Origin: Dehalococcoidia bacterium
GTDB taxonomy: Bacteria > Chloroflexota > Dehalococcoidia > Lucifugimonadales > QGNO01
NCBI GenBank assembly: GCA_965261825.1
Contig: CBDHED010000003.1
Coordinates: 135,090 to 199,089, forward strand
Length of the DNA stretch: 64,000 bases
Direction: 5' to 3'
Numbering within the stretch: the stretch's first letter is position 1; each line of letters begins with the position of its first letter. Below the pieces are notes generated by a model that was given only the letters and a program-made list of their open reading frames with translations, made no database searches and was not told where the DNA came from. The position numbers and the translations under genes were made by a program. Shown one piece after another: positions 1 to 34,904 of this stretch.

Positions 1-1
1 T

Positions 2-937
2 ACAGGAAAGGAGATAATCGAGAAACCCGGAGCTCACGGCAATCTCTTCTTCTTCATCACAGATCTCCTTTACTGGGACATGCGCGGTGACCTCCTTGGG
101 AAATGCTACGGTACCCTGATCATGGTGCCCCGTGAAGAGATGGGCACCGGCAGGGCAATGTCAGTGGAACGCTTAGGTGAGCGTATGTTGTATGAACGAG
201 AGCCCGGCAAGTACAACGAAGAGAAGGTTGAAGAGATCCTAGACATGGTGAAGAAGGGACGCCCCAGGGGCAAAGAGATTCTATACTGGGAGGACGTCAA
301 CGTGGGCGATAAGTTGACGCCCTTTGTGCTTCCTCCTTGGACTGACCAGGACTACGCCGGTCCCAACTTGATCCGCAACGGACCGCAGAGGGCATACGGC
401 TTTGATGCAGGATATAGGATGCGGAAGTACATCAGACAAGAAGGTGGGGGAGGCGTCACTTACACGCATCCGGTTTCCCGCTGGCCTTGGAGCCCGGGTG
501 CCGAACACGGCGATGCCCTCATGGCGGCCTACCGCGGCCAGTCTCTCCCCTTTGACTGGGGTGGTCAGAGATCCCAGATACCTCAAGCCTTGATGAGTAA
601 CTGGATGGGCGACCACGGCTTCATTCGCCGTCTCCAGATGGCCCTACGCCGGCCCATGTACTACGGAGACCTTGGTGTTTATAGCGGTGAAGTGACAAAG
701 AAGTTCAAAGAAGTGCAGAAAGGCGAGTCCGGCGAAGGCGCTGTCCCCGGGGAGAGGACCTACTACGCGGTGGGCATCAAGTACGAGGGACGCAACCACG
801 AGGACCAGGTATTTGTCCAAGGCACGTCCACGGTCTACCTGCCCTCCCGGGAAGGTGGCATGGTGCAACTGCCTATTCCGCACGTGGCCAGACCCCCTGC
901 GGTCCCCTACGAGACCTTCTACAGGGACTGGTACTAG
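2..937 (+). CDS. double hot-dog fold (MaoC/FAS1-dehydratase-like) protein, paralog A; 5' end cut by window edge
   Basis: The frame is open from nt 2. TGKEIIEKPGAHGNLFFFITDLLYWD...CYGTLIMVP aligns with the internal part of the full-length paralogs at 4163, 27949(-), 39084 and 40469. It ends ...VPYETFYRDWY. Confidence 0.8.
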   Translation, partial: TGKEIIEKPGAHGNLFFFITDLLYWDMRGDLLGKCYGTLIMVPREEMGTGRAMSVERLGERMLYEREPGKYNEEKVEEILDMVKKGRPRGKEILYWEDVNVGDKLTPFVLPPWTDQDYAGPNLIRNGPQRAYGFDAGYRMRKYIRQEGGGGVTYTHPVSRWPWSPGAEHGDALMAAYRGQSLPFDWGGQRSQIPQALMSNWMGDHGFIRRLQMALRRPMYYGDLGVYSGEVTKKFKEVQKGESGEGAVPGERTYYAVGIKYEGRNHEDQVFVQGTSTVYLPSREGGMVQLPIPHVARPPAVPYETFYRDWY

Positions 938-966
938 ACCCAGTTTATTGGAGCGTCTAAGGCTTG

Positions 967-2295
967 ATGGAACTAGACGGGATGCTCACCGGGATACGTG
1001 TGCTCGACTCCACCACGGCAGTAGCAATGCCAACGGCGATGCACATCCTGGCCGATATGGGGGCCGAGGTGATAAAGGTTGAAGCCCCCGCCAGAGAGGA
1101 GTCCGCTGCCAGGGATGACGCGTTCCAGTACTTGCAACACGGCAAGCTGGGAGTGACGGTCAATATCAAGGCGGAGGGCGGCCTAGACCTTTACAAAGAC
1201 CTAGTGCGTGTCAGTGACGTCCTTGTAGAGAACAATAGGGCCGGTACCATCGCCCGTTTGGGACTGGGATATGATGAACTGCGTAAAGTAAACCCCACCA
1301 TTGTTATGCTCTCCAACACCGGCTTCGGCCAGACAGGCCCATGGAGGCGCTATACTGGGATCGGATCTTTCCTTGAACTAACCACAGGAGTCAGCCACTT
1401 CACCGGCTATTTGGATCAGGGCCCGCGGCAGGTTGGAGGGGCCTGGATCGATATTCACGCGGCGTGGATGACCGTCTTCTCCGTGCTTGCCGCGCTTTAC
1501 CATCGTGCCCAAACGGGAGTTGGGCAGCATGTCGACTTCGCCATGTACCAGGTCGGTGTGACCACGATGGGTGTTGATCTTCTCGATTACTTCTCCAACG
1601 GTAGGATTGGAAAGCAGATGGCGAATCGTCATCCATACTACGCACCACACGGCCTGTACCCCTGTAAGGGCGAAGACAGATGGATCGCCATCGCCGTAGA
1701 GTCCGATGTCCAGTGGCGGGCACTTTGTATATTGATGGACAAGCCTGAGTTGGCGAATGACCCGCGATACGCAGACAGCCTGAGCCGCTGGCATCATCAA
1801 GACGACCTTGAACCCGTCATCGCGGCCTGGAGCAAGGAATACGATTACAGAGAGTTGATGAAGCTAACCCAAGACAAAGGCATAGTAGCCTCCATAGTAC
1901 CTGATGCCGCAGAACTAATGACGGACCCGCATATGGTGGCCCGGGGCTTCTACGAAAAAATGACCCACTCCCCGGAATCGGGATACGGTACCAGGCTATT
2001 CATCGGACGTCCTTGGAAAGCGTCCCATACCCCATCTCATTTCCGTAGACCCGCTCCCTACCTCGGTGAGCACAACGAATATGTCTTCGGAGAGCTCCTC
2101 GGTTTGTACCACAAAGACCTGGAGCGGCTCTACCAGAACGGGGTTGCCGCCAAGATTCCTCCCAAGCCACAACAAGAGAGTGCAGGTCGACCCGTAGGGC
2201 GTAGAGGCCATATCGGCTACGCGGCGCCGTCGGTGGAGAACGGTACCTTGGCCTACGTTGACTCTGACTATAAAAAGAAACTCGGCATCGAATGA
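967..2295 (+). CDS. family-III (CaiB/BaiF-type) CoA-transferase, alpha-type subunit, copy 1
   Basis: Motifs: GIRVLDSTTAVAMPTAMHILADMGAEVIKVE, NNRAGT..LGLGY, GFGQTGPW, AWIDIH...LAALYHR..GVGQHVDFAMYQ. ATG 967 is preferred over TTG 964 by comparison with the paralogs at 41861 and 59469. Confidence 0.85.
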   Translation: MELDGMLTGIRVLDSTTAVAMPTAMHILADMGAEVIKVEAPAREESAARDDAFQYLQHGKLGVTVNIKAEGGLDLYKDLVRVSDVLVENNRAGTIARLGLGYDELRKVNPTIVMLSNTGFGQTGPWRRYTGIGSFLELTTGVSHFTGYLDQGPRQVGGAWIDIHAAWMTVFSVLAALYHRAQTGVGQHVDFAMYQVGVTTMGVDLLDYFSNGRIGKQMANRHPYYAPHGLYPCKGEDRWIAIAVESDVQWRALCILMDKPELANDPRYADSLSRWHHQDDLEPVIAAWSKEYDYRELMKLTQDKGIVASIVPDAAELMTDPHMVARGFYEKMTHSPESGYGTRLFIGRPWKASHTPSHFRRPAPYLGEHNEYVFGELLGLYHKDLERLYQNGVAAKIPPKPQQESAGRPVGRRGHIGYAAPSVENGTLAYVDSDYKKKLGIE

Positions 2296-3518
2296 CGCAA
2301 GCAGGGCCATTTAATAAGCTGCGTGTTATAGACCTAGCAACCGAGGTCGCCGGCCCCTTTGCCACAAAACTCTTCGCCGACTACGGCGCCGATGTGATCA
2401 AAGTGGAACCGGTTGGTGGTGAGCCGTCAAGGCGCATGGGGCCCTTTCACGAGGACGACCCTCATCCTGAAAAGAGCTTGACCTTCCTTTTCCTGAACTG
2501 TAACAAGCGCGGGGTCACACTGAATCTGGAGACAGAGGCCGGTAGGAAGATATTTCGCGAGTTGGTCAGGGGCGCCGACCTACTCGTGGAGAGCAACCCG
2601 CCCCGCTATCTCGAAGGGTTAGGTATAGGCTATCGCGAACTGGAGAACCTCAATCCCCAGCTCGTGATGACGTCCATTACACCTTTCGGTCGGACCGGGC
2701 CCTATCGGGATTTCAAAGGCAACGACTTGGTGTACTACGCATTCGGTGGGCAGATGTACGTCAGTGGCGCCTATGACCGAGAGCCGTTGAAGCACGGACA
2801 CCCTCAGAGCCTCTTCTTGGGTGGCATGGTTGCAGCACACGCCACCACTGCAGCTCTGTTTGCCAGAACTATGCTTGGCCGAGGCCAGCATATAGACCTA
2901 TCCTTGGCAGAGGTTATGGCGGCCGATCAATACCAGTCCGCCGTGCGCTACGCCTTCTCCGGTCAAGTGACCCGCCGAGCGCCCAAGAGCGACACCGGTG
3001 ACCCCAAGGGCACTGGATTCAACGGCATGGTCCGGGCCAAGGACGGCTATGTGCGTCTGTCGGTCAGCCCCCCGAATCGCCTCTACCCCAGGTCAGGGGA
3101 GACGCCGTGGAAAGATTACGCGGCCCTACTTGGCCATCCCGAGTTGGGACAGCCACTACAAGACGCCGAGAGCATCCAGGATATAGACTCACTCCTCTTG
3201 CCCGTCATCCGGGAGATGCCCAAGTTCGAGTATTTTCATAACCTGATGACCCAGGAGTGGGACGCAGCAGTGGCGCAGACCCCGGAAGATTTGGCCGGCA
3301 GCCCTCAGTTGGAAGACCGTGGCTTCTTCACCCAAGTAGAGCATCCTGTTGTAGGAAAGATAAGATTTCCCGGTGAGATTGTGAGGTTCTCCAAATCGCC
3401 ATGGAGCCTTCGTTTTCCCGCTCCGTTGTTGGGGCAGCACAATAGAGCGGTGTACTGCGGAGAGCTCGGTTACACAGATGAGGATGTCGTGAACCTTAGG
3501 CAGCTAGGCGTCATTTAG
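2292..3518 (+). CDS. family-III CoA-transferase-like, beta-type subunit, copy 1
   Basis: Motifs: LRVIDLATEVAGPFATKLFADYGADVIKVEP, ITPFGRTGPY, GRGQHIDLSLAEV. The start ATG overlaps the upstream stop (ATGA), which indicates translational coupling. Confidence 0.85.
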   Translation: MTQAGPFNKLRVIDLATEVAGPFATKLFADYGADVIKVEPVGGEPSRRMGPFHEDDPHPEKSLTFLFLNCNKRGVTLNLETEAGRKIFRELVRGADLLVESNPPRYLEGLGIGYRELENLNPQLVMTSITPFGRTGPYRDFKGNDLVYYAFGGQMYVSGAYDREPLKHGHPQSLFLGGMVAAHATTAALFARTMLGRGQHIDLSLAEVMAADQYQSAVRYAFSGQVTRRAPKSDTGDPKGTGFNGMVRAKDGYVRLSVSPPNRLYPRSGETPWKDYAALLGHPELGQPLQDAESIQDIDSLLLPVIREMPKFEYFHNLMTQEWDAAVAQTPEDLAGSPQLEDRGFFTQVEHPVVGKIRFPGEIVRFSKSPWSLRFPAPLLGQHNRAVYCGELGYTDEDVVNLRQLGVI

Positions 3519-4162
3519 CAGAGCCCGCGACACTCATCGTATGCATTTGCTTGCGAGTGGAACTACCCCTTCAACAGCGAGGATTTCAACCCCAGGCTCT
3601 ACTACGTGGCCAGGCTGTATAGAGATGGTACGCCCGCAGGGGCTGAAGATGTAAAATTCGTCAGGGGTTCCGAGAGACCACGAGCATCGAGTTCGACGTC
3701 TCAGGCATAGAGAGGAGAGGCAAGTTCACCGTGACGGCGACGCGCCTCCGCCGACGCCGGGCCTGATGGAGCCGAGGCCACGTACCACACCGTCGCTACA
3801 TAGCTCTAGTGAGGTACGGAGATAGTCATAGATCGGTTTCGTGAACCCGGCTGAACCCCTTGGCAACTCCCTGGGGACCCGCTTGCCTAGAGCGATCTCA
3901 CGGGAGTGGGCATCAAGCTAATGCAGGATACACATCCTTTGAGGAAATAAGAGCTCTAAGCTCTGTAGCCACTGATACTCAAAAACATCTCTGTCGTATT
4001 CCTCAATCATTGCCTTGACAGCGCTCTGAATCAGTGGTACAAGCTCGCTCACCTGATGCCTAAACGCTACCGTCTTGAATACCCATGACAAACCTAGAGA
4101 ACCTCTGGGTCCGTATCTCAGTTGGAGAATAGCGTACGCTCGGAGAAAAGGGGGAGGAACGA

Positions 4163-5524
4163 ATGTTGACCCAGACTTTCGAAGAGGCAATTACCGAGTA
4201 CATCGAACGGTGCAAGGAGGCAATTGGAAAAGAGAGAGACGAATATAGGCCCCCCGGCCCGGGGACTCCGTTTCCTTGGTCCTCGCCATATGAAGCGGCA
4301 TTAAGATTCGATTCCCGGACAATCCGCAACTACACCTTGGCTCACGGTGATGACAACCCCCTATTCATCGACCCAGAGTATGGCAAGAGGACGCGCTACG
4401 GCTCCCAACTAGTCCCTAACCCGGCCCTCATTTTGGTAAGAGGCGCCGGCGGCCAAGGACCAAACAGACCCCAGGGATACCCGGTAGGCGATTTCTTTTC
4501 CGGAGTCGCCTGGGACTACTACGATGTTGTCAGGCTTGGTGCCGCTCGTGTTAAGAACACCAAAACCACCACGGAGTTCTTTGAAAAGCAAGGCTCAAGA
4601 GGACGCTTGCTCTTCCTCATCGCGGAGAACCGGTATTGGGATGCCCACGCCGATTTGATAGCCATGTGCTACGGGACGCTTATTCTGGTCCCAATTGAAG
4701 CTATGGGCGGCGGTCGTGCCATGCCCGTGGAGCGCTTAGGCGAACAGCTAATGTACGAACGTAAGGCATCCCAGTACAATCGTGAGCAAGTAGACGAATG
4801 TCTTGCGACGATGAACCAGTCTTACCGACGTGGTGCGAATACACTCTACTGGGAAGACGTTCAGGTAGGAGACAAACTGGGGCCTCTAGTCCATCCACCA
4901 TTCACTCTCCTAGACCAGATATCAGGTGGCGTGGTCTCTGGCGCCACGCAAGGCCCCAGGCAGTATGAGGAGGGTGAGGATCTGACTCATGAGGGCCTTC
5001 AATTTGAGGGCGTGTTCCATCGGAATCGGAAGAGACCTGGAGGTGCGGGCACGCACCCCATTACTCGTTGGCCTTGGGGTCCCCGTGATGAGCACCCCGA
5101 TGCCGTAACCGCCCCGTTCCGCGGACAGCCGTTACCCTTTGACGGGGGGGTCAGGCGCACGCAAGCAGCCAACAGAATGCTGACAGACTGGATGGGTGAC
5201 GATGGGTTCATTCGGCGCTACCAGACCGCCCTACGCAAACCGCTGTATTACGGAGACACCACCATATATACGGGTGAGGTAGTAAGAAAGTTCAAAGAAG
5301 TGCAAGAGGGCAACGCCGAGCCTGGGGGCCAGCCCGGTAAGGCTGAGTACAACGTTGTAGGGATCAAACTGCAAGGGTCCAATCAACTGGAAGAGATCCA
5401 GATGCAGGGCACCGCAGCCATATATCTGCCCTCGCGAGAAACCGGGCCAGTTAAGTTACCCGTGCCCCACCCTGGGAATCCCCCGTACGTACCTTATGAA
5501 ACCTTCTATCGTGACTGGTATTGA
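4163..5524 (+). CDS. double hot-dog fold (MaoC/FAS1-dehydratase-like) protein, paralog B
   Basis: GGAGGA Shine-Dalgarno 4 nt upstream of the ATG. IRNYTLAHGDDNPLFIDPEYG resembles the MaoC_dehydrat_N / hydratase-2 segment. LYWEDVQVGDKLGP is a typical MaoC hot-dog entry. C-terminus VPYETFYRDWY. Confidence 0.85.
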   Translation: MLTQTFEEAITEYIERCKEAIGKERDEYRPPGPGTPFPWSSPYEAALRFDSRTIRNYTLAHGDDNPLFIDPEYGKRTRYGSQLVPNPALILVRGAGGQGPNRPQGYPVGDFFSGVAWDYYDVVRLGAARVKNTKTTTEFFEKQGSRGRLLFLIAENRYWDAHADLIAMCYGTLILVPIEAMGGGRAMPVERLGEQLMYERKASQYNREQVDECLATMNQSYRRGANTLYWEDVQVGDKLGPLVHPPFTLLDQISGGVVSGATQGPRQYEEGEDLTHEGLQFEGVFHRNRKRPGGAGTHPITRWPWGPRDEHPDAVTAPFRGQPLPFDGGVRRTQAANRMLTDWMGDDGFIRRYQTALRKPLYYGDTTIYTGEVVRKFKEVQEGNAEPGGQPGKAEYNVVGIKLQGSNQLEEIQMQGTAAIYLPSRETGPVKLPVPHPGNPPYVPYETFYRDWY

Positions 5525-5712
5525 ACGGCGGCTCGTTAGACCCAGAGCAGTATAACCGGAGGTAGCCGGCTTGGCAGTCCCCGCGTTACTAGCGCCGCTA
5601 CTCTTCTTCCATGGTAACAAGCGGCAAGCCCGTACCACGGACTTCGCCTCTCTACTGCTGCGTGACGGCTACCGTTGAATCGCGTTAGATCAGCGGGGAG
5701 ACGGCGACCGAG

Positions 5713-7512
5713 CTACCAGCCAAAGGCGTAAGCAGTGTTCCCTTTAGGCGAGGCGGCGCCTGAGATTGTGCCCCGCTCCTTGTCAAATTGGATCGCCATC
5801 ACCCTTCCATTGGCCCAGTCCCCCACGATGTCTATCTGGTGGCCTCGACTTTCCAGCTCACCGATAACCTCCGGGGGGATGCGACCTTCGGCGATGACCT
5901 TTGCGGGGTACGCCGCCCTGGGATAAAAGGAAGACGGGAAATGGTTGGAGTGCACGGTGGGTGCATCCAACGCCTCCTGTAGATTCATGCCGAACTCCAC
6001 GTAGTTCATGAAGAACTGTAGCGTCCACTGGTCTTGGGCATCTCCACCTGGCGTACCAAACACCATAAACGGTTCTCCTCTCTTGGTTACCAGGGATGGC
6101 GTCAGTGTTGCCCTGGGCCGCTTGTGTGGAGCCAATGCGTTGGGCCGCTCTGGATTCAGGTAGAACATCTGCCCCCTGGTGCCCAGCGGAAATCCCAATC
6201 CCTTGATGACGGGGGACGAGCGCAGCCACCCGCCGCTCGGCGTAGCGCTCACCATATTCCCTTCGTGGTCAACCGCATCCAGGTGTGTCGTGTCGTTTAT
6301 GTGTCCCTCTGTCGATCCGGACTGGGGCGCTTCAGCCACCGGCAGGCCAAGCGCTCTTCTGTTGTCTAGAGCTACGTCCAGAAGATCGTAGGAGAGACTT
6401 CCCCGGCCAACGTCTCCGGCAACAAGTTCTGTGGAGGCCTGAGCGCCGACAAGCTCTTGTCTTGCTGCGGCGTATCTCTCCGAAAGAAGCTTGGCCACGG
6501 GCACTTCATCAAACATCGGGTCGCCGTAGTAGGCTTCCCGATCAGCGAACGCCAGTTTCGCCGACTCGATCCAGGTATGCAGGTAGTTAGCGGAGTTGTG
6601 GCCCATGCTCTTGAGATCGAACCCGTTCAATATTGCGAGCGTCTGAAGGAAAACCAGGCCCTGCGTCCAGGGAGGGCATTTGTGTACATCCAGTCCTCGA
6701 AAGCTATAGGTCACTGGATCCTCTACTTGTGCGTGCCACTCTGCAATATCCTCGTAAGATAACAGTCCCCTATGAGACTTGCCGCTGGCGTCTTCCACCG
6801 GGTTCTCACTGATGAACCTGGCAATGCGTTCGGCAATGTCTCCCTTATAGAAGGCGTCACGCGCTGCCTCTATGCCACTCGTCCGACCCTTGTGTTGGGC
6901 CTCCTTTTCAGCACGGACCATCGTCTTGAGCACATCGGCCCAGTCCTGGTTGCGGATTACATCCCCCAACTCAGGGGCTCGGCCAAAGGGCCAATAAACC
7001 TCACCGGTTGTCGGGTAAAGCTCTCCTAAACTATCGGCGTACTCGGCAAGCCTGGTCTGCAGTGTCGGGTAGAGGACAAATCCATTCTCGGCCAGATCAA
7101 TCGCGGGTTGGAGCACCTGGGCAAACGACATGGTGCCCCACCTTGCTAAGGCTACAGCCCATGTGTCCACTACAGCGGGCACGCAGGCGGGCAAATACCC
7201 GTCTCCCGGGATGAGGTCAATGCCGTTGTCACGGCACCAGTCAATGGTAAACGCTTTTGGCGTCCATCCCATGCCGCTGATGGCATACGTCCTACCTTCA
7301 CGCGCCGAGTAGATTAGCGTAGGCACTTCGCCGCCAATACCGCAGCTGGCTGGCTCCAGTATGTTCAGACAGAAACACATGGCGGCCGCCGCGTCTATGG
7401 CATTGCCGCCTTGGTCCATGATACGGAAGCCTGCAGCCGTAGCCAGGTAATGTCCTGAGGTTACCACTCCTCGCGTCCCCAGAATCACCGGTCGAGTTGT
7501 GAAAGTCCCCAT
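5713..7512 (-). CDS. gamma-glutamyltranspeptidase (GGT) family protein; no obvious signal peptide
   Basis: 599 aa. INDTTHLDAVDHEGNMVSATPSGG fits the autoprocessing Thr region, and FGTPGGDAQDQ is also present. GGAGGGAG Shine-Dalgarno upstream. Confidence 0.85.
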   Translation of the reverse strand: MGTFTTRPVILGTRGVVTSGHYLATAAGFRIMDQGGNAIDAAAAMCFCLNILEPASCGIGGEVPTLIYSAREGRTYAISGMGWTPKAFTIDWCRDNGIDLIPGDGYLPACVPAVVDTWAVALARWGTMSFAQVLQPAIDLAENGFVLYPTLQTRLAEYADSLGELYPTTGEVYWPFGRAPELGDVIRNQDWADVLKTMVRAEKEAQHKGRTSGIEAARDAFYKGDIAERIARFISENPVEDASGKSHRGLLSYEDIAEWHAQVEDPVTYSFRGLDVHKCPPWTQGLVFLQTLAILNGFDLKSMGHNSANYLHTWIESAKLAFADREAYYGDPMFDEVPVAKLLSERYAAARQELVGAQASTELVAGDVGRGSLSYDLLDVALDNRRALGLPVAEAPQSGSTEGHINDTTHLDAVDHEGNMVSATPSGGWLRSSPVIKGLGFPLGTRGQMFYLNPERPNALAPHKRPRATLTPSLVTKRGEPFMVFGTPGGDAQDQWTLQFFMNYVEFGMNLQEALDAPTVHSNHFPSSFYPRAAYPAKVIAEGRIPPEVIGELESRGHQIDIVGDWANGRVMAIQFDKERGTISGAASPKGNTAYAFGW

Positions 7513-7762
7513 AGCTCCCTCCCTAGCCTAAGCTCCATGTGATGTACCTAGCCATCTTATTCATGGAACCTTACCAGAGGCAGACAGGACGGCCAATACC
7601 TCCTCGCTCGTAACATGTTCAAGCTCAAAGTAGGCTTTCTTATCTCATCATCATTGAGTATCACGCTGGAATAGGCCAAGAACCACTGATTCCCCGCGTA
7701 TCCTTCAATGGCAAGACTGTCGTCATGGTACATGCGGAAGCAGGGGGCCGCGTCGCTGACCG

Positions 7763-7984
7763 ATGAGTGCCCCGACACTGACCGTCCTCGGCCTCGGCGG
7801 AGGCGTCCAGTCCTCCGTCATGGAGCTCATTTCATGGGTCCAAATCCGGATAAGAGGTAGACACCCACGACCAAGCATGTCGTATACTGCCTTTACCGGT
7901 CTATATAGGGAAGCATACCGATTGCGCGTATGGTTCATGATGACCAATAACCCAATACGGAATCCCCATAGAACGAACGTCTAG
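7763..7984 (+). pseudogene. possible remnant of a PP-loop (PAPS-reductase-like) gene; only about 20 N-terminal residues are recognisable
   Basis: MSAPTLTVLGLGGGVQSSVM resembles the N-terminal nucleotide-binding loop of phage-type PAPS-reductase family proteins. The rest of the ORF has no protein-like character. Confidence 0.2.
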
Positions 7985-7994
7985 TACATATGAT

Positions 7995-8399
7995 ATGCCG
8001 ATACCATTAGAGGTTGTTATAGAGCGCACTCCGCTATCCCAGCAGGCTGACCGCCGCCGCTTGAGAGCTTGGAAGCGGGTGGTGCGGAATGCTGTGGGAG
8101 AAGAGTGGGACGCTGAACCGCCCTTCGCCGGAGAAGTCATGGTGGGCATCACCTACTACTTCAAAGGAGAGTCTCTGGATGTCGACAATATGCCGAAGCC
8201 AATCCTGGACGCACTGAAGGGGCTGGTCTATGCCGACGACGACCAAATAACCGACCTCGTCTGCCGCAAGAGAACCCGGGATAGAGACCTGCAATTTGAG
8301 AACCCGTCACCCGTTCTGCTGGAAACGCTCGGACGATCCGAGCAGTTTCTCCACATCACCGTGAACGAAGCACTGAGCCTGGAGGTGCCATCTTGGTGA
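7995..8399 (+). CDS. RusA-family Holliday-junction resolvase-like endonuclease
   Basis: 134 aa. LDVDNMPKPILDALKGLVYADDDQI matches the RusA acidic/Lys core (D-x-D-N-x2-K-x3-D-A-L...D-D-x-Q). Confidence 0.7.
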   Translation: MPIPLEVVIERTPLSQQADRRRLRAWKRVVRNAVGEEWDAEPPFAGEVMVGITYYFKGESLDVDNMPKPILDALKGLVYADDDQITDLVCRKRTRDRDLQFENPSPVLLETLGRSEQFLHITVNEALSLEVPSW

Positions 8400-9049
8400 G
8401 AGACGCAACCGACTCCGAATACCTACTCACGCACAAGACCGCAGAAGAGTACCGAAGCAAGGGCTACCAGGTCCTGTTGGAAGCGCCGCTGGACTTCATG
8501 CCGGGATTCAGAGCCGATCTGCTTGTTCGGAAGGGCGATGAGGCGAGGGTCATAGAAGTGAAGTCCAGAGCGTCACTGGCCGCCGACCCCAAGATAAGCG
8601 AGCTGGCGCGACTCATCGAGTCGATGCCAGGGTGGACTTTTGAGCTGGTTCTGGTGGGTGAACCGGAAAAGGTGGACTCGCCCGAAGGCGCACGTTCGTT
8701 TGAGAGCGATGGGATTCTGCAAAGGCTCGAAGAAGCCGAGAGATCTCTCCAAGCGGAATTACCGGAGGGGGCCTTCCTGCTCGCATGGTCGGCTTCTGAA
8801 GCCGTCATCAGAGAACTGCTTACAGCGCAGGGGGTATCCAGCAGGAGCATCACCTCGCCCGGTTATGTTCTCGACCAGGGGATATACCGTGGGGTCATCT
8901 CTAGGAACGACTACGACGCTCTGACCCGTATGCGAAAGTACAGAAACGCTATCGTCCATGGTTTCGGCACATACGACTTCAACGGTGAACTGGTAACGGA
9001 GCTCATTGCCACCATAAGACGCATCATGGCGAGGCGTTTTAGGGATTAG
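8393..9049 (+). CDS. PD-(D/E)xK nuclease-like N-domain fused to a C-terminal HEPN domain
   Basis: RADLLVRKGDEARVIEVKS gives D42...E55-x-K57, a restriction-endonuclease-like triad. YRNAIVHGF at nt 8942-8959 is a canonical HEPN R-N-x3-H motif. The start (TTG 8393 or GTG 8396) overlaps the RusA-like stop. Confidence 0.65.
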   Translation: MVRDATDSEYLLTHKTAEEYRSKGYQVLLEAPLDFMPGFRADLLVRKGDEARVIEVKSRASLAADPKISELARLIESMPGWTFELVLVGEPEKVDSPEGARSFESDGILQRLEEAERSLQAELPEGAFLLAWSASEAVIRELLTAQGVSSRSITSPGYVLDQGIYRGVISRNDYDALTRMRKYRNAIVHGFGTYDFNGELVTELIATIRRIMARRFRD

Positions 9050-9190
9050 GTCCATGGGCAAGTAGCCCTTGACGACTCGGTTCTGTCTACCGTCCACTTA
9101 GGCCCACCAAAGAGGAATCGAACGGGTCGTAGGGCACCAGTTGCTAGTTGGCACACCCCTTTCGTCGCCCCGCTTTACCTACCCGGCTTT

Positions 9191-11707
<2,517 letters not shown>

Positions 11708-11955
11708 CCTCAGAGTAATGCTCGTAACAGTCCGAGATCCCGCGCCGCTATCGGGATAGCATGGGTAGTCAAGCACCAGACTATCGTCCCCCGTGCATAG
11801 GGAGCTCACATTTGGCCACTTCCGTGGATACCTCATCATCTCTGAACAGTTACAATTGTGTTATTCTTTTGATAAAGATTTCACAAGTCTTGGGGTCAGA
11901 CGCCCACTAACAATCAGCCCTCTCCCGCAGGGGGTAGAACAGCAGGAGTTGCTCT

Positions 11956-14900
11956 GTGACATTCCTCACCGCATTGGCATTACGCCGCCCGACGGTTGCC
12001 CTCTTGGCCATCATTATCGTCTTGACCTCCGGCATTCTTGCGTACCGGTCCATGCAGGTGGAGCTCTTCCCGCAAATTGAGTTTCCTCTGGTTACGGTAT
12101 TTGCCTCCTACCCTTCCGCAGATCCTGGCGCGGTGGTTCGAGAAGTCACGGACCCAATCGAACGGGCCATTTCTGGCGCGGATGGACTGGAACTTCTCCA
12201 GTCCACGTCCTCTGAAGGGAATGCCGTGATCTTCGCGACATACAAGTTCGGGACGGACATGGCTGCTGCGGCGAGCGACGTTGAGAATTCCCTTAACGGT
12301 TTGAACTTCCCCCCAGGCGTCGACAGCCCCACCGTGGGCCGTTTCAACCCTGACGACTTTCCGGTGATCCAGTTCGGCGTCGTTTCCGATAGGCCACTTA
12401 CCGAAGTCCAGCGGCTGACGGAGGACCTTATCATCCCAGAGATTGAAGACATTGAGGGGGTCACGGAGGTCCGACTGACTGGAGGCGTGGAGCGCAACAT
12501 AACGGTAGTAGCGGATTTGAACAAGTTGTCGGCCAACGGCGTCTCCCTCTATCAAGTCTCCTCCGCACTACGCGAGAACAACGTGACGCTGCCGGCGGGC
12601 CTGCTTTTCGACGGCGGGCAGGCGGTCATCGCCAAGACCACGCACTCTCTGGACTCGGTTGATGAGCTCCAGAGCCTCGTCGTTGCCATCAACGAATCGG
12701 GGCCGGTGCGGCTGTCGGACGTAGCAACGGTCTCCTTTGGCTCGGCACGGCCCTCCAGCGTTTCCCGTATCAACGGGCAGCCCGGGCTCTCCGTATCTGT
12801 CACAAAGGATCCGGATGCCAACACCCTGGATGTCACGACCCTGGTGAACGAGAGCCTGGAAACCATCACGGGAATACCTGACGACGTCAACATCATCGTG
12901 GTGACCGACCAGGGCCCGGACATTCAGAGACAGATTGACAATCTGGTGAGAGAAGGCGTGTTTGGCTTCCTCTTTGCCGTTTCCGTGGTATTTGCATTCA
13001 TGCTCACCATCCGTCCGACCATTGTGCGAGGGCTGTTTACCACCATTAGGCCCACTGCCGTCATAGGGCTATCCATACCCCTCAGCGTCTTCACCGGCAT
13101 ACTCCTCATGTACTGGCAGGACATGTCCCTCAATTTCATGACACTGGGCGGCCTTGCCATCTCTGTAGGCCGGGTGGTGGACGACTCCATTGTCGTGCTG
13201 GAAAACGTGTACCGCCACATACAGGGCGGCCGAGAGCGCTGGCGCGCCGCGCTGGAGGCCACGGTGGAGGTGGGGCCGGCTATCTTCGCGTCCACTATGA
13301 CGACCGTTGTCGTCTTTGTGCCGCTGGCCTTCATAGAGGGGCTGGTGGGCTCATTCTTCCTCCCCTTCGCACTCACAGTAACCTTTGCGCTGTTGGCCTC
13401 TCTGATGGTGGCCCTCACCGCTGTGCCGGTGCTGGGCGCCCTGCTGCTGCGCCCGGGTGACCTGCCTGATGTCGCCGGCGACGAAGGCGATATCCCCATG
13501 CAAGAGACTTGGTTGCAACGGACGTATATCACCATTCTCAAGTGGGTGCTTGGGCACCGCGCCGTAACGCTCCTGGCCGCCGCCATCCTGACCCTGGGGA
13601 GCCTTGGCCTCCTGGCGATCATTCCGGTAAACCTTTTTGGCGGCGGCGGCGACCGGTTCCTGCAAATTGAATTGAGCTTGCCCCCAGGCTCAGGGGTGGA
13701 ACAGACCGTTGAGGCGGTCACGGGCATTGAGGCCCGGCTCGGAGAGTTCTCGGAAGTGTACAGCGTAACCATCGGCGCTGGTGGCGCTGACCCCGAGTTT
13801 GCCGGGATCCCCGCCGGGCTTGGAAGCGCAAGCTTTCTTGTCCAACTCTCGGAAGACGCCCCGCAGGACATTGCGGAAACGTTGCGTGAAGAGTTGGCCA
13901 AGCCTGGGCAGACCTTGCGAATATCGGAGGTCTCGGCTGGGCCACCCGTCGGGGGAGTTGAGATCGCCGTCACAGGCACCAACTACGACGACATCGCTGC
14001 GGTTTCCGCGGAATTGACCGCCTCCATAGCAACAATTGAAGGTGTTATCAATTTGGAAAGCGACGTCACCGAGGCCCGGACAGAGGTGGTCGTGGAGGTG
14101 GACCAGGAGAAGGCGGCGCTCGTTGGACTGACGACGCAGCAAGTCGGGTTGCAACTTAGCCAGTACCTCATCGGACAGCGAGTCACCACGATCAACGTTG
14201 ACGGCGAAACCGTGGACGTTTTCGTCTCCGGAGACCCACGGGCCGCGGGCGGCATCGAACAGCTCAAGTCGCTCATCATCGTGGGCCCTGCCGGCACCGT
14301 CCCGCTCGGTGACGTGGCGGAACCCGTCCTGCGGGAAGGGCCGGTCTCAATCACTCGAACGGACGGAATGCGGTCTTCCAGCATCGCAGGCGACATAGTC
14401 TCGGATAACGCGCAGGCGGTGGGCATTCTCATTGATGAGAAGATCGCAGCATTGGACCTGCCGCCGGGCGTGAGCGTGACCAGCGGCGGCATCTTCGCGG
14501 ACATTGAGGAGGGCTTCCAGGCCATATTCATCTCTATGGCCGTGGGCATCGTACTAGTCTACTTGGTTATGGTGGCCAGCCTCGGCAGCCTGCGGAACCC
14601 CTTTGTCATCGTTCTTACATTGCCCCTGGCGCTCATTGGCGTTATGGTCTCGCTTGTGGTAACCGACCGAGCGCTCGGTCTGGCGGCCATGATGGGAGTC
14701 CTCTTACTCATCGGCATCGTGGTCACCAACGCCATCGTGCTGATCTCCTTCGTGGAGCAGCAACGGACCCGCGGGTTGAGTGTCTACGACGCGCTGGTCT
14801 CCGGCGCACGAGTGCGGCTGCGCCCCATCCTGATGACGGCCATCACAACCAGCTTTGCACTGCTGCCCCTGGCCGTGGAAACGGAGGGGAGCGGGGGGAT

Positions 14901-15078
14901 TATCAGTGCGGAATTGGCGACGGTGGTTATAGGCGGACTCACCAGTTCCACGGCGCTGACCTTGCTGGTGCTGCCCATCGTCTACACACTCTTCAACGAC
15001 AGCATCCCGCGCCTGATCGACAGGCTGTTGCGTAGAAACGTTCCAGCCGCCGCGTCCGAAGCCACCGAAACAGCTTGA
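11956..15078 (+). CDS. RND (AcrB/HAE-type) efflux transporter; no adjacent adaptor or outer-membrane gene
   Basis: 1040 aa. N-terminus LALRRPTVALLAIIIVL...ELFPQIEFP, with 12-TM architecture and two large loops. GTG start with AGGAG 7 nt upstream. Confidence 0.9.
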   Translation: MTFLTALALRRPTVALLAIIIVLTSGILAYRSMQVELFPQIEFPLVTVFASYPSADPGAVVREVTDPIERAISGADGLELLQSTSSEGNAVIFATYKFGTDMAAAASDVENSLNGLNFPPGVDSPTVGRFNPDDFPVIQFGVVSDRPLTEVQRLTEDLIIPEIEDIEGVTEVRLTGGVERNITVVADLNKLSANGVSLYQVSSALRENNVTLPAGLLFDGGQAVIAKTTHSLDSVDELQSLVVAINESGPVRLSDVATVSFGSARPSSVSRINGQPGLSVSVTKDPDANTLDVTTLVNESLETITGIPDDVNIIVVTDQGPDIQRQIDNLVREGVFGFLFAVSVVFAFMLTIRPTIVRGLFTTIRPTAVIGLSIPLSVFTGILLMYWQDMSLNFMTLGGLAISVGRVVDDSIVVLENVYRHIQGGRERWRAALEATVEVGPAIFASTMTTVVVFVPLAFIEGLVGSFFLPFALTVTFALLASLMVALTAVPVLGALLLRPGDLPDVAGDEGDIPMQETWLQRTYITILKWVLGHRAVTLLAAAILTLGSLGLLAIIPVNLFGGGGDRFLQIELSLPPGSGVEQTVEAVTGIEARLGEFSEVYSVTIGAGGADPEFAGIPAGLGSASFLVQLSEDAPQDIAETLREELAKPGQTLRISEVSAGPPVGGVEIAVTGTNYDDIAAVSAELTASIATIEGVINLESDVTEARTEVVVEVDQEKAALVGLTTQQVGLQLSQYLIGQRVTTINVDGETVDVFVSGDPRAAGGIEQLKSLIIVGPAGTVPLGDVAEPVLREGPVSITRTDGMRSSSIAGDIVSDNAQAVGILIDEKIAALDLPPGVSVTSGGIFADIEEGFQAIFISMAVGIVLVYLVMVASLGSLRNPFVIVLTLPLALIGVMVSLVVTDRALGLAAMMGVLLLIGIVVTNAIVLISFVEQQRTRGLSVYDALVSGARVRLRPILMTAITTSFALLPLAVETEGSGGIISAELATVVIGGLTSSTALTLLVLPIVYTLFNDSIPRLIDRLLRRNVPAAASEATETA

Positions 15079-15182
15079 GCCCAAGACCGCCCGTGACCGG
15101 CACGGAAGGAGCAGACTAGCCCACCACGCCTTAAGACAACCGGTGGAGTATCGCTCACGGCTACTTCTTAGAGTCTGGCCTC

Positions 15183-15231
15183 ATCCAATCAACCGCCCAT
15201 AAGTACCGCACTTTTTCGTTGCTATTGCGTC
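15183..15231. repeat. intergenic direct repeat, copy 2 (downstream of the RND gene)
   Basis: atccaatcaaccgcccataagtaccgcactttttcgttgctattgcgtc; see copy 1. A weaker partial relative (tggcacaccc...tttatcc...) lies at 15327-15412. Confidence 0.7.
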
Positions 15232-15450
15232 CTGTCTTTAAGACGCCGATTCTAGGCACGAAATCCCGCCGCATTGTGTAGAGATGCCTTCTCTGGTACC
15301 CTGCGTTTGGGTTGATATCGCGTGGCTGGCACACCCGTCCGCCACGTTTTATCCCTAGTCCATCCAAAGTGACACCGGAGCGAATTTCTCGCCTCTTTTG
15401 TGCCTATTTACCAAACTTTGCTAGCTCAAACGCTGTGTTGAGGGAGCATT

Positions 15451-16230
15451 ATGACTGGAGAGAACGGATCATCGCAGAGTGCCGCCGAGCAGTTTGGCAG
15501 GCAGGCGGAGCATTACGCGGTAAGCACCGGCGTGCACGCCCACAGTGAGGGACTGGATGTATTGCAAGAGTACGCATCACTGGGTGGCCGCGGCGTTGCC
15601 GTGGACATAGCCACGGGGGCAGGGTTCACCGCGTTTGCCGTGTCTCCATACGTGGAGCGGGTGCTCGCCACCGATATAGCGGCCGGAATGTTGCAACAGA
15701 CCAGGCAGCTGGCCGGCGAGCGAAATCTGGGCAACGTAGAACTTGCCTTTGTTGAGGCAGAGCACATGCCCTTTGCCGGTGGTTCTTTGGACATGGTGAC
15801 GTGCCGGCAGGCGGCGCACCACTTCTACAAACTCCCCCTGGCGCTGCGGGAGATCAGTCGCGTGCTCAAGCCCGGCGGGGTGTTCTTGTTGAGCGACACT
15901 TGCGCTCCTGAAGAGGACGCTGTGGCGGCGTGGATGAACGATGTTGAGCTGAGGCGCGATACAACCCACGTTAGGGATAGGAAGCAGTCGGAGTGGCGCG
16001 CCATGCTACAAGAAGTCGGGCTGGCGGTAACCCACCTCCAGATGGCCAGAGTTCACCTGGAGTTCAACGACTGGGTGAAGCGATCGGCGACCCCGGAGGA
16101 AGAGGTGGAACCCTTGAGAAGGGACTTCCTATCGGCTTCTGAAACTGTTGTGGATGCTCTTGGCATAGAGCCTGAAGGCGGCGGCATCAACTTCAGCTGG
16201 CCGGTAGTGGTGTTGCGGGCTGTGAAGTAA
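15451..16230 (+). CDS. class I SAM-dependent methyltransferase (UbiE/Methyltransf_11-like)
   Basis: VDIATGAGFTAFAV is motif I. LKPGGVFLLSD is the post-I/III region. Confidence 0.8.
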   Translation: MTGENGSSQSAAEQFGRQAEHYAVSTGVHAHSEGLDVLQEYASLGGRGVAVDIATGAGFTAFAVSPYVERVLATDIAAGMLQQTRQLAGERNLGNVELAFVEAEHMPFAGGSLDMVTCRQAAHHFYKLPLALREISRVLKPGGVFLLSDTCAPEEDAVAAWMNDVELRRDTTHVRDRKQSEWRAMLQEVGLAVTHLQMARVHLEFNDWVKRSATPEEEVEPLRRDFLSASETVVDALGIEPEGGGINFSWPVVVLRAVK

Positions 16231-16250
16231 ATGAAACGGTAGATTGACCA

Positions 16251-16886
16251 ATGACCTTAGTGACAGACCGCCTTAGCTGGTTGGGCTTAAGAGTGATTAT
16301 TCTGGCCTCAGTGCTGGGAGTTTCCGGCTGTCTGGGTGGGATGCCTGAAACGCTCACACCGACGGCTACGCCCGTACCGCCACCGACGCCAACTCCAGCG
16401 GCTACGCCCGTACCACCACCGACGCCTACCAAAGGTAGGTATGAGACCTGCCCCTCCTTTGATCCGGATGAGGTGGAAGTGAGGTGGAAGATTGATCCGG
16501 ATGAGGTGGAATACGTTGGGCTATCGCTTCCTATAATGCCAAGTGAGGATGTCACCCTGCATCCGGAACTGGTAGAGGACACCATCGAGCTTGTCAAGAG
16601 GGCGTTAAAGGGTGATGGTACTATCAAAGAGCTCGGAATCGAAGAGGCAGGAGAGGCGATGCAAGTTACTGTGACAGATACTGGAGGAGGAGTTCGGATG
16701 GGTGGTCCTACACGTAAGTTGGGAGATGGCCGTGAACTGTACCACGAAGTTTGGCTGGGGGGATCGGCCACTTTTGAGGACGGTTCTGAGACCGGCTTCC
16801 AAGTCTGGGCTTATCCCGCACTCTCCAGCCGGGGTTGTACGATTCAACGTGTGATAATCTTCCATGAGTATTTTGCTCCCATCTAG
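16251..16886 (+). CDS. hypothetical lipoprotein with Pro/Thr-rich linker
   Basis: Signal peptide plus lipobox (LGVSGC), followed by TPTATPVPPPTPTPAATPVPPPTPT. No recognisable domain. Confidence 0.6.
   Translation: MTLVTDRLSWLGLRVIILASVLGVSGCLGGMPETLTPTATPVPPPTPTPAATPVPPPTPTKGRYETCPSFDPDEVEVRWKIDPDEVEYVGLSLPIMPSEDVTLHPELVEDTIELVKRALKGDGTIKELGIEEAGEAMQVTVTDTGGGVRMGGPTRKLGDGRELYHEVWLGGSATFEDGSETGFQVWAYPALSSRGCTIQRVIIFHEYFAPI
16365..16426 (+). repeat. 36-nt-period tandem duplication inside the lipoprotein linker
   Basis: gctacgcccgtaccgccaccgacgcc (16365-16390) and gctacgcccgtaccaccaccgacgcc (16401-16426), encoding ATPVPPPTP twice. Confidence 0.8.
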
Positions 16887-16950
16887 TGGCTAGGCGTGGG
16901 CGGGGCTAGTGGGAGGATTCTTGAACTCGTCCACAGACTGGCGATTACTT

Positions 16951-16975
16951 AGCAGTACCCTCAAAGGGTACTGCT
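16951..16975. terminator. perfect 11-bp hairpin between convergent genes (candidate bidirectional terminator)
   Basis: agcagtaccct-caa-agggtactgct. No strong U-tract. Confidence 0.45.
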
Positions 16976-17017
16976 TCAACCCGCTCGTTCCTCCTGGCTT
17001 TGTCCTGCCATCAATCC

Positions 17018-18001
17018 CTATATAGATTTACGTAACGCTTCCAAGTTTGCCCCTGGGCAGCGTGGCGAAATTGAGCATGTGGAGCCGATCATAAAGCTCT
17101 GGCTCTCAGTCTGGGCGATCGCCTCTTTGACTTCGCCGGCTACTGACCCGGGTTGGCCGTGCAGGAGTGTTTCGCGACTAACACCCCCTATGAGAGGTTT
17201 GCTTGTGAAAGTACGGGCTTGTTCAAGAGAGGGGTTGGTGGCGTCCTGCGTGTCCCAGTTGAAGGCTTGAACAGGATAATCGATAAGGTCCCTCAGCATG
17301 TTGTGGCTGCGGCAAACGTGAAGTACATTGAACCAAGCATCTTTGGCCGCGCTTAGGACGCGTAGATCATAGGGACGGCCAAACTCCGCGTACTCTTCGC
17401 TGGTGATGAGGTCCGTGGTAGCCCAGGACGTGGTCGCGAAGAAGATACCGTCAGCACCGGCGTTCAATATTTCGCTGACGTAGCTGCTAAAGGTCTGGGT
17501 GATCACCTCAAGGGCTGAGTGAATTCTGTCTGGGTGATGCCGCATCTGTTCTACTAGAGTACCCTCTGACTCCACTAGGCGTCCCGCAATGGAGATGGGG
17601 TTGAATACCGTCATTATGAAAGGCACATCACCGGCTAGGCCGTTCTTGATATCGCTCAGGGCCTTCAGATGTTCAGCGAGGACACCCGTAGTTGTTTTCA
17701 GAGGTTCAAGATAATCCCATTGTTCTAGTGAACCAACCGGCACATCCAGCGCAGTCGGGCCCTCGTTGGGGTCTGCTGGATACTGGAATGTGGCTCCCCA
17801 GTCTTCAACGTGATACTGAGCGCGCGGATTCACCTTCATGAAATCCCAGTCGTATTGCTGCTGGAAGCCAAGCATCGACTCTACAAGACCTTGGGTAGTC
17901 GTTTCTTTATCGTAGAAATGCCGCCACACACTGATGGGAGGCCGGTCAACCGTTTCACCTTCAAGTACCGCCTGTATTCGCTCTTGCTTTGTCAACGTCA
18001 T
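17018..18001 (-). CDS. uroporphyrinogen decarboxylase (URO-D) family protein, MtaA/CmuA-like
   Basis: ERIQAVLEGETVDRPPISVWRHF is the N-terminal signature of the URO-D/methyltransferase family. The internal ATG at 18001 is preferred because GAGGAGG lies 6 nt upstream. Confidence 0.7.
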   Translation of the reverse strand: MTLTKQERIQAVLEGETVDRPPISVWRHFYDKETTTQGLVESMLGFQQQYDWDFMKVNPRAQYHVEDWGATFQYPADPNEGPTALDVPVGSLEQWDYLEPLKTTTGVLAEHLKALSDIKNGLAGDVPFIMTVFNPISIAGRLVESEGTLVEQMRHHPDRIHSALEVITQTFSSYVSEILNAGADGIFFATTSWATTDLITSEEYAEFGRPYDLRVLSAAKDAWFNVLHVCRSHNMLRDLIDYPVQAFNWDTQDATNPSLEQARTFTSKPLIGGVSRETLLHGQPGSVAGEVKEAIAQTESQSFMIGSTCSISPRCPGANLEALRKSI

Positions 18002-18014
18002 TGGAGCCTCCTCA

Positions 18015-18173
18015 TTACCCTGTTTCTCCATGTTCTTTTTTCAATCGCTCGGCGCGGCGGCGAGTGATTTCTTGCAGCAACCGCACGCCTCTGCCGGTAA
18101 TGCGCATCTTGCGCTTGCTTTGCCGTTTCTGCTCGCGCCGGTCTGATCTGGTCTCGGGCTCTTCATCAGCCAT
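18015..18173 (-). CDS. possible 52-aa highly basic small protein (not in the ORF track)
   Basis: MADEEPETRSDRREQKRQSKRKMRITGRGVRLLQEITRRRAERLKKEHGETG. Its stop lies 13 nt upstream of the URO-D start on the same strand. No clear Shine-Dalgarno. Confidence 0.25.
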   Translation of the reverse strand: MADEEPETRSDRREQKRQSKRKMRITGRGVRLLQEITRRRAERLKKEHGETG

Positions 18174-18266
18174 AACCCGATGGTAAGGCAACATTTGGTC
18201 TCAAAGCAAACTAATGCCAGATAGCGTGATTTAGGTTACCATGTCCGCTGCTCCTAGGACGCAAGT

Positions 18267-21007: not shown

Positions 21008-21008
21008 G

Positions 21009-22292: not shown

Positions 22293-22294
22293 AC

Positions 22295-23407: not shown

Positions 23408-23431
23408 ACCGCGTTATTGCAAGGAGATTGT

Positions 23432-24466: not shown

Positions 24467-24517
24467 GTTGAAACCACAACTACGGCGTGAGTCTGCTTGA
24501 TATATAAGGAGGAGTAC

Positions 24518-34808: not shown

Positions 34809-34826
34809 GGAGGTGTGCCTGGCTGG

Positions 34827-34845: not shown

Positions 34846-34904
34846 ATTCCGTGTTTCGACGGAAATCATGACCTGACCGAGGGAAATCGTACACCTGATT
34901 AATT

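Follow-up and report, generated by a model that had tools for sequence, protein, structure and literature searches.

Paralogous MaoC-like double hot-dog proteins of a Dehalococcoidia genome, predicted enoyl-thioester hydratase subunits that keep the canonical His and lack the canonical Asp

Hydratase 2 of eukaryotic MFE-2 (1s9c, 1pn4) and the dehydratase of fungal fatty acid synthase (FAS) consist of two hot dogs, a noncatalytic N-terminal and a catalytic C-terminal domain, the latter bearing the canonical hydratase-2 motif and its Asp and His. The Mycobacterium (3R)-hydroxyacyl-acyl carrier protein (ACP) dehydratases HadAB and HadBC and the steroid enoyl-coenzyme A (CoA) hydratase ChsH1-ChsH2 are heteromeric; in HadA/HadB and ChsH2/ChsH1, a catalytic subunit is paired with a structural one. 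For HadAB, the hydratase-2 motif and the catalytic dyad Asp36/His41 are found in HadB only, where His58-Gly59 lie at the active-site entrance, and HadA binds the substrate (PMC4491049). The mesaconyl-CoA hydratase MeaC departs from the Asp/His pair by having Asn226/His231 (PMC10164722). Here we describe a family of ~450-residue proteins encoded five times (copies A to E, Table 1) in a 64,000-nucleotide (nt) stretch of a Dehalococcoidia bacterium genome (contig CBDHED010000003.1, positions 135,090 to 199,089), referred to as the window; copy B is the focal gene. The family clearly belongs to the MaoC-like double hot-dog superfamily, as an uncharacterised variant of a known enzyme kind. On balance we favour the view, drawn from sequence comparison, that each protein, with its double hot-dog architecture, serves as catalytic subunit in an enoyl-thioester hydratase/dehydratase of MaoC type that resembles (R)-hydratases.

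All five open reading frames (ORFs) were found where the original prediction had placed them, and each sequence block that it quoted was seen in the five-copy alignment: TFEEAI.EY..RC; Y(A/T)L(S/A)(I/H)G(D/N).NPL(F/Y).DPEYG; (C/A)YGT.I.VP...MG..R.M.V(E/D)RLGE; LYWEDV.VG; WMGD.GF(I/V)RR; and the C-terminal VPYETFYRDW followed by Tyr or Phe. Pairwise identity among the copies is 53-70% (full-length alignment), far beyond chance. The full copies have 445-453 amino acids (aa), compared with 325-353 aa for the best structural matches in the PDB, which agrees with the earlier estimate of about 100 aa more than in typical fused MaoC hydratases. The extra length is spread over five places, namely an N-terminal helix plus extension, the inter-domain linker, a ~45-residue insertion (255-300), a hairpin at ~380-395 and a 17-residue tail. 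No Rfam family reached the gathering threshold anywhere in the 64-kb window, which has a G+C content of ~57%. A strong purine-rich ribosome-binding site, GGGGGAGG, immediately precedes the ATG of copy B at 4163.

That the proteins are MaoC-like and contain two hot-dog domains, as had been proposed, is agreed upon by Pfam, an AlphaFold2 model and Foldseek. PF13452 (FAS1_DH_region / MaoC_dehydrat_N), a name that traces to the fungal FAS dehydratase region, matches residues ~48-166 of all four full-length copies with E-values of 3e-6 to 5e-11 and 27.9-43.2 bits (Pfam cut-off 22). The 27-bit cut-off of PF01575 (MaoC_dehydratas) is reached by copies D (27.5) and E (31.7), while B (14.9) and C (19.1) fall short; its best-scoring stretch lies in the C-terminal domain (309-377) in copy E only. 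The model of copy B, for which 96 aligned sequences were used, shows two hot-dog units with a predicted local distance difference test score (pLDDT) of 90 and a predicted TM-score (pTM) of 0.90, confidence being low at residues ~255-285 only. A Foldseek search against the PDB gave 199 matches at E<=1e-3, the foremost being MaoC-like dehydratases of 260-353 aa at 10-14% identity. The best were 5i7n (E 1.5e-17) and 4v12 (MSMEG_6754, E 2.8e-17), both with a TM-score of 0.64-0.68 on the target, followed among others by 4e3e (a Chloroflexus MaoC-domain protein), 8hgn (MeaC), 8huc and 8khg (PaIch), MFE-2 hydratase 2 (1s9c, 1pn4), the fungal FAS dehydratase and Rv0216 (2bi0, E 5.5e-11). Together with Rv0216, the two leading structures are the best full-length matches and have the same layout of a structural N-terminal and a catalytic C-terminal domain, the latter aligning around the His; unlike the ~450-aa family, they have 325-343 aa and no tail, and identity is as low as for the other matches. 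Thioesterase families were found neither in Pfam at E<=1 nor among the top 50 PDB fold matches.

At the sequence level the relationships are more distant. A single-sequence PDB search with copy B gave a best E-value of about 0.05, to ChsH1/ChsH2; profile searches then yielded alignments to HadAB and ChsH with E-values of just 1e-3 to 1e-6. Copies B and C have no match in NCBIfam, and D and E give HadA/HadB fragments at E about 0.003-0.007. Names in public sources are generic ('MaoC family dehydratase N-terminal domain-containing protein' or 'acyl dehydratase'), so that the family is indeed unnamed, as first noted. Literature searches turned up no description of it, and looking up the exact sequence of copy B gave no record.

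In alignments, the C-terminal hot dog corresponds to HadB and the small ChsH subunit. It is marked by RRG..YWEDV at its entry, the ~45-residue insertion (~255-300), EHxDA, PFDxG.QR and WMGDDG. A profile of this half aligned EHEDALLAAYRGQPGPFDxGVQR...NWMGDDGF with HadB IHWDDEIAKVVGLDTAIAHGMLT...SWVGDPGA, and likewise with the small ChsH subunit, 5i7n and 4v12. His311 falls on HadB His41 and on the His of 'NPIH' in 5i7n, and Gly329 on HadB Gly59; the His, the Gly 18 residues after it and WxGDxG are thus shared with HadB and the small ChsH subunit, and WxGDxG is also common to 5i7n and 4v12. Residues H311, D327, G329, R332, W343, G345, D346 and D365 do not vary across the 96 aligned sequences, which reach down to 23% identity. 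In PhaJ and MFE-2, the equivalent of Gly329 forms the oxyanion hole, a role that Gly329 may share. The catalytic residues, which had been regarded as unclear, are therefore not wholly so, since the canonical histidine is invariant in the C-terminal domain.

The canonical Asp, in contrast, is truly missing. Five residues before the His, at the position of HadB Asp36, the alignments show Gly306 in copy B and Gly, Ser, Thr or Cys across the family. The hydratase-2 motif [YF]-x(1,2)-[LVIG]-[STGC]-G-D-x-N-P-[LIV]-H-x(5)-[AS], as quoted in PMC4491049, matched none of the copies and no frame of the window in a regular-expression search, which distinguishes the family from MFE-2 hydratase 2 and the fungal FAS dehydratase. 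5i7n, reading ..ANPIHWD.., keeps the Asn-Pro-Ile-His that the family lacks. The ~45-residue insertion is located where the GDxNP segment would fall, and this insertion, the hairpin and the conserved tail likewise set the family apart from HadAB and ChsH. Asp327 is the best candidate for a replacement acid as judged from the alignments: it would stand at the start of the central helix, two residues ahead of Gly329 and one ahead of the residue matching HadB His58, where the chain lines the active-site entrance. We propose that the HadB-like hot dog carries the active site, with His311, Gly329 and, on the central helix, Arg332, and that Asp327 may take over the role of the missing Asp, possibly assisted by Glu310. 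A shifted Asp was also considered, in the form of the acidic residue that several standalone short forms have at His-6; it was rejected because the residue is not conserved there and is Trp, His or Tyr in the long form. The earlier suggestion of a new active site holds as far as the loss of the Asp makes a modified site plausible and fails in that the canonical His is retained. No characterised enzyme that has a canonical Asp/His dyad and matches along the whole protein came up in PDB sequence, profile and fold searches, so that the outcome named as refuting the original prediction did not arise.

The block Y(A/T)L..G(D/N).NPL(F/Y).DPEYG had been flagged as a non-canonical hydratase motif, with Phe or Tyr replacing the catalytic His. 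It sits in the N-terminal PF13452 domain, the half that aligns with HadA and the large ChsH subunit and that, in hot-dog hydratases of double or heteromeric type, is normally noncatalytic. In profile and single-sequence PDB searches it aligned with GDRNPIYVD of the large ChsH subunit, which has undergone the same change from His to an aromatic residue, and also with HadA-type subunits. Because the change is shared by the large ChsH subunit and HadA is noncatalytic, Phe or Tyr is the expected state of this domain and no sign of a new active site. The N-terminal hot dog is predicted to be the structural, substrate-accommodating half, for which a degenerate motif is normal. Copy E reads GNTNPLY and does have Asn in place of Asp, as had been noticed. 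Asp63 of the N-terminal domain was also tried as a partner of His311 and was rejected, as this residue is the Asn of copy E. Motifs of the N- and C-terminal domains belong, besides, to different pseudo-symmetric sites of the hot-dog dimer, which argues against such a pairing.

Further evidence for the role of the long form comes from its genomic partners. GTDB representative genomes were scanned and gave 527 relatives, of which the best 80 loci were kept. In about 22 of 58 long-form loci from related genomes, a second family member lies directly upstream, usually a short form of 382-403 aa and in Myxococcaceae a fusion to an adenylation (A) domain. The two genes overlap or are <=4 nt apart in actinomycete and proteobacterial loci and 36-50 nt apart in SAR202 loci. 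Both H311 and D327 are present in 343 of 394 family sequences placed on one profile; ~33 lack both, 8 lack D327 only and 1-2 lack H311 only. Each upstream partner lacks both residues, H311 being replaced by Tyr, Phe, Arg or Gly and D327 by Ser, Thr, Ala, Gly or Ile, and such a partner (short paralogs plus the A-domain fusion) occurs in ~16-20 related loci. A rough neighbour-joining tree (BLOSUM distances, no support values, used for clade membership only) unites the partners in one clade beside the long-form clade and indicates further independent double losses in at least three other places. Since H311, D327, G329 and R332 are kept in the long form, and H311 and D327 are lost in the partners, the long form is taken to be the catalytic member. 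By analogy with HadAB and ChsH, it probably works in many genomes as a heteromer with the H311/D327-less short paralog. Unlike in those systems, a single chain contains the two hot dogs, and the partner has the same double architecture. In the closest metagenome-assembled genomes (MAGs; L008-L010), the ortholog of copy B is preceded by a short hot-dog partner and another long form; as this is not the case in the window, the local gene order has been rearranged.

The original prediction had also considered a substrate-binding or scaffold role. This idea does not hold for the long-form family; it fits the shorter upstream paralog of related genomes. That the long form itself is a noncatalytic partner, for example of a CoA-transferase, is in our judgement improbable. 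The lack of His in the N-terminal motif and of the canonical Asp in the C-terminal domain would suit such a role, and noncatalytic hot-dog subunits such as HadA exist (PMC4491049); against it, H311, D327, G329 and R332 are invariant across very distant relatives and are lost in a separate short partner clade. The invariant tail, which could act as a docking peptide, deserves consideration here. VPYETFYRDW was confirmed to be identical in all five copies, and the ending ..[YR][RK][DE]W[YF] is common to the long-form clade including Lentzea, Lysobacter, Allosphingosinicella and Myxococcaceae, tails outside SAR202 reading ..RAEWF, ..SQEWF, ..SREWF and ..SPAWY. Short forms and the nearest tail-less relatives do not have this ending. 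The monomer model of copy B has a short helix at 445-448 with pLDDT 85-92, which suggests that the tail packs back on its own subunit, and this confident packing speaks against a scaffold function. Docking of the tail to a CoA-transferase was rejected as its main explanation, since the tail is also kept in clusters without CoA-transferases.

The tailed clade hardly occurs outside Dehalococcoidia/SAR202, whose genomes carry many copies each. Homologs of copy B come almost entirely from Dehalococcoidia/SAR202 MAGs, and at >=38% identity the best 80 of the 527 relatives comprise these MAGs, one Lentzea sp. and one Lysobacter enzymogenes. At least six copies are found in OZ240235.1 and at least nine in MAG S32_256, and six protein clusters of the family are located on one 2.24-Mb contig. 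The survey of distribution and copy number proposed with the original prediction has therefore given a near-exclusive Dehalococcoidia/SAR202 occurrence with at least 5-9 copies per genome of roughly 2-2.5 Mb. The wider family comprises 7,206 clusters at 50% identity (E<=1e-3), 767 of them at E<=1e-30. Its short forms stand beside CoA-transferases in Rhizobium, Burkholderiales and Acidimicrobiia.

At two places in the window, two family-III CoA-transferase genes come directly after a hot-dog gene: pair 1 starts 26 nt after copy A and pair 2 starts 36 nt after copy E. Such a pair lies downstream in 14 of the 58 long-form loci, and major facilitator superfamily (MFS) transporter genes occur in 12 of 58. 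ATP-binding cassette (ABC) transporter, amidase, DUF1028, DHDPS-family and crotonase genes recur in long-form loci as well. The CoA-transferases stay far under every NCBIfam equivalog cut-off (about 200 versus 700-750 bits), so that no substrate can be assigned; their best-scoring models are succinate-glutarate and succinyl-CoA:mesaconate CoA-transferase.

This gene order recalls Mch/MeaC (4e3e, 8hgn) and PaIch (8huc, 8khg), which share the double hot-dog fold and act downstream of family-III CoA-transferases on CoA-activated acids; in MeaC the Asp/His pair is altered too. Might the family be a divergent but ordinary hydratase of C5-dicarboxylyl-CoA, that is, a mesaconyl-, itaconyl- or citramalyl-type Mch/MeaC or Ich ortholog? 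The fold matches to 4e3e, 8hgn and 8huc/8khg and the best-scoring CoA-transferase models would agree with this, and the invariant Arg332 could bind the second carboxylate. We nevertheless give it little credence. The low CoA-transferase scores weaken the link to these substrates, no NCBIfam equivalog matches the hot-dog proteins, which stay at 10-14% identity, and a PDB sequence comparison with PaIch gave weak stretches only. Gly occupies the canonical Asn/Asp position, and the proteins are ~100 aa longer and have a clade-specific tail. A citramalyl- or malyl-CoA lyase of HpcH/CitE type was not found among the 45 window ORFs scanned, and a DHDPS-family gene stands beside some related loci. In addition, Mch, MeaC and Ich are single-copy, in contrast to the massive paralogy here; 5-9 or more paralogs per ~2 Mb genome argue for many substrates and not for one central pathway.

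Several short forms (P0181, P0198, P0218, P0224, P0241, P0245, P0263, P0266) are fused to nonribosomal peptide synthetase (NRPS)-like modules or, once, to an MmgE/PrpD domain, the layouts being hot dog-A-T-TE, hot dog-A-MT-T-TE, hot dog-A-T-C and A-hot dog besides the single MmgE/PrpD fusion. The fusions imply that the substrates are carrier-bound thioesters and that there is a link to the chemistry of di- or tricarboxylates. CoA-transferase neighbours, NRPS and PrpD fusions and PP-binding neighbours together point to thioester chemistry, on CoA or a carrier protein, with polar organic acids. In the pathway that gene order suggests, organic acids would be imported by the adjoining ABC or MFS transporters and converted by the two-gene family-III CoA-transferase to CoA thioesters without ATP. 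An acyl-CoA dehydrogenase would desaturate these where needed, and the long hot-dog enzyme would hydrate the resulting enoyl-CoA, each paralog handling different acids.

Several observations weigh against the hydratase proposal. Identity to any solved hydratase is only 10-14%, the Asp five residues before the His is replaced by Gly, Ser, Thr or Cys across the family, no copy fits the hydratase-2 motif, and other reactions are known from related hot-dog folds. In the rough tree all partner paralogs fall into one clade, so that a single event may account for most of the co-loss signal. An adjoining second hot-dog gene is found in only ~22, and adjoining CoA-transferases in only 14, of the 58 long-form loci. 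The window itself lacks an H311/D327-less partner: copy B is without a neighbouring paralog, and the two residues persist in D as well as in E.

A less likely reading is that His311 and a non-canonical partner catalyse another thioester reaction, for example hydrolysis, double-bond isomerisation, the elimination or addition of an amine or thiol, or the decarboxylation of a carboxylated acyl-CoA. In its favour, the canonical Asp and the hydratase-2 motif are both missing, and crotonase-family enoyl-CoA hydratase genes, found nearby in the window, already provide hydratases beside CoA-transferase pairs. Nitrogen-containing substrates are hinted at by the amidase, ornithine-cyclodeaminase-like, DUF1028 and peptide-type ABC genes of related loci and, in the window, by amidases, a gamma-glutamyltranspeptidase and peptide-type transporters. 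One member of the wider family carries the PrpD/MmgE-type fusion, and the active domain of the malonyl-ACP decarboxylase YiiD is reportedly a MaoC-like hot dog. All sequence and fold matches, however, are hydratases or dehydratases and none is a thioesterase or decarboxylase; the His and the Gly that match HadB active-site residues are kept, and a thioesterase would be wasteful beside an energy-conserving CoA-transferase. Loss of the canonical pair is no obstacle either, as MeaC with its Asn226/His231 is still a hydratase (PMC10164722).

If the long form is the hydratase that we favour, acting on CoA-activated acids, it would offer a concrete, expressible handle on the substrates of SAR202. 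These Chloroflexi, abundant in the dark ocean, have been suggested as oxidisers of refractory dissolved organic matter. In the SAR202 genome paper that highlights CoA-transferase expansion, the words hydratase and dehydratase are absent (PMC5395668). A MaoC-type enzyme with the His kept and the Asp moved or lost would widen the catalytic repertoire of the hot-dog fold, as would pairing with a double hot-dog paralog lacking both residues. The points of interest are the missing Asp with Asp327 as candidate substitute, the double-loss partner, the invariant tail and how tightly the family is linked to the expanded CoA-transferases of SAR202. More tentatively, these features could together represent an undescribed two-component hydratase system of a long subunit with an aromatic tail (..RDW[Y/F]) and a His311/Asp327 dyad, its acid relocated from the canonical loop at His-5 to the start of the central helix, and a double-loss paralog; it would have been massively amplified in SAR202 to handle many CoA-activated components of refractory marine dissolved organic matter and recruited to carrier-protein (NRPS-like) clusters of Proteobacteria, Myxococcota and Actinomycetota. 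Clusters of Lysobacter, Myxococcaceae, Lentzea and Allosphingosinicella contain the same module and represent cultivable test systems.

Table 1. Positions in the window of the hot-dog genes, of domains and residues of copy B, and of adjoining gene groups
Feature	Position	Strand	Description	Basis
Copy A	2-937	+	partial, C-terminal 311 aa, runs off window start	ORF list, alignment
Copy B (focal)	4163-5524	+	453 aa, long-form double hot-dog protein	ORF, PF13452 match at residues 52-166, AlphaFold2, Foldseek
N-terminal hot-dog domain	4304-4693	+	~residues 48-177; GDDNPLF at 4346-4366	PF13452, alignment to ChsH large subunit and single hot-dog hydratases
C-terminal HadB-like hot-dog domain	4829-5470	+	~residues 223-436	alignments to HadB, small ChsH subunit, 5i7n, 4v12; invariant columns
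His311 codon	5093-5095	+	predicted catalytic histidine	invariant (96 sequences), on HadB His41
Asp327-x-Gly329	5141-5149	+	Asp327 candidate replacement acid	both invariant; Gly329 on HadB Gly59
Tail VPYETFYRDWY	5489-5521	+	protein C-terminus	five-copy alignment, long-form clade conservation, model
Copy C	27949-29286	-	445 aa	ORF, alignment
Copy D	39084-40433	+	449 aa	ORF, alignment, Pfam
Copy E	40469-41824	+	451 aa; 35 nt after copy D, 36 nt before CoA-transferase pair	
Family-III CoA-transferase pair 1	964-3518	+	443 + 408 aa, 4-nt overlap	PF02515 E 7e-101 and 3e-83
Family-III CoA-transferase pair 2	41861-44421	+	445 + 408 aa, 4-nt overlap	
Acyl-CoA dehydrogenase, SBP_bac_5 binding protein and two permeases	33615-38933	+	directly upstream of copies D/E	same order in L011-L013

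In total the window contains three paralogous CoA-transferase pairs (443-448 + 408 aa), each with a 4-nt overlap, which suggests that they form heterodimers. Two crotonase-family genes, and no hot-dog gene, flank the third (59469-62038). Between the first pair and copy B there is a gap of 644 nt (3519-4162) without a listed ORF of >=150 aa. Two paralogous uptake cassettes of SBP_bac_5 (peptide/opine) type are present at 35058-38933 and 46409-53326, both consisting of one binding-protein gene and two permease genes; the adjoining ORFs scanned included no ATPase gene. The transporter proteins from 35058-38933 are 99-100% identical to those of OZ252212.1, a 2.0-Mb Dehalococcoidia MAG chromosome (L012). 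Downstream of pair 2 comes the second cassette and, after it, a tandem of two amidase genes (50347-51771 and 51899-53326); a LuxR-type regulator gene (45475-46257, minus strand) is located between the clusters.

Copy C is followed on the same (minus) strand by a lipoate-protein-ligase-like gene (LplA-B_cat, 27168-27923) and a class-V aminotransferase gene (25856-27037). This trio recurs at 91-96% identity in three Dehalococcoidia MAG loci (L033, L034, L041). A run of oxidative genes typical of SAR202 extends over 18267-25300: a glycolate-oxidase-like set of two FAD-linked oxidase genes and an Fe-S/CCG subunit (18267-22292), then arylsulfotransferase-like (22295-23407), luciferase-like monooxygenase (23417-24466) and short-chain dehydrogenase/reductase (SDR, 24497-25300) genes. 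Downstream of copy B, a gamma-glutamyltranspeptidase gene (5713-7512, minus strand) is conserved beside the orthologs in L008-L010, and genes for an AHJR-like nuclease-domain protein (8393-9049), an 827-aa peroxidase-domain protein, possibly KatG-like (9224-11707), and an AcrB-family transporter (11956-15078) follow; the genes of 5713-15078 are apparently unrelated to the hot-dog family.

Outside Dehalococcoidia, the tailed hot dog is part of a conserved, biosynthetic-looking cluster in Allosphingosinicella (L001 and L002, about 1-12000) and in the Myxococcaceae JPH2 (L003, about 5490-18817). The cluster comprises genes for a PP-binding carrier protein, an H311/D327-less partner hot dog (the A-domain fusion in Myxococcaceae) and a FemAB-like protein, in addition to glutamine-synthetase-like, SDR, cupin, DHQ-synthase-like, GATase_4, WelO5-like and DegT genes. 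The Allosphingosinicella cluster additionally has an FkbM-type methyltransferase and a C39-peptidase ABC exporter. A hot-dog pair is also present in Lentzea (L059) and in Lysobacter enzymogenes Lj46 (L066), where the pair alone was examined. Finally, an antisense ORF of ~190 aa inside the hot-dog genes appears 'conserved' in 48 of 58 loci (L008-L065; for example L027, 6781-7359, minus strand), and the window carries similar ones at 28475-28936 and 39867-40379. It is most likely a shadow ORF resulting from the conserved coding sequence of the sense strand, and not a gene.

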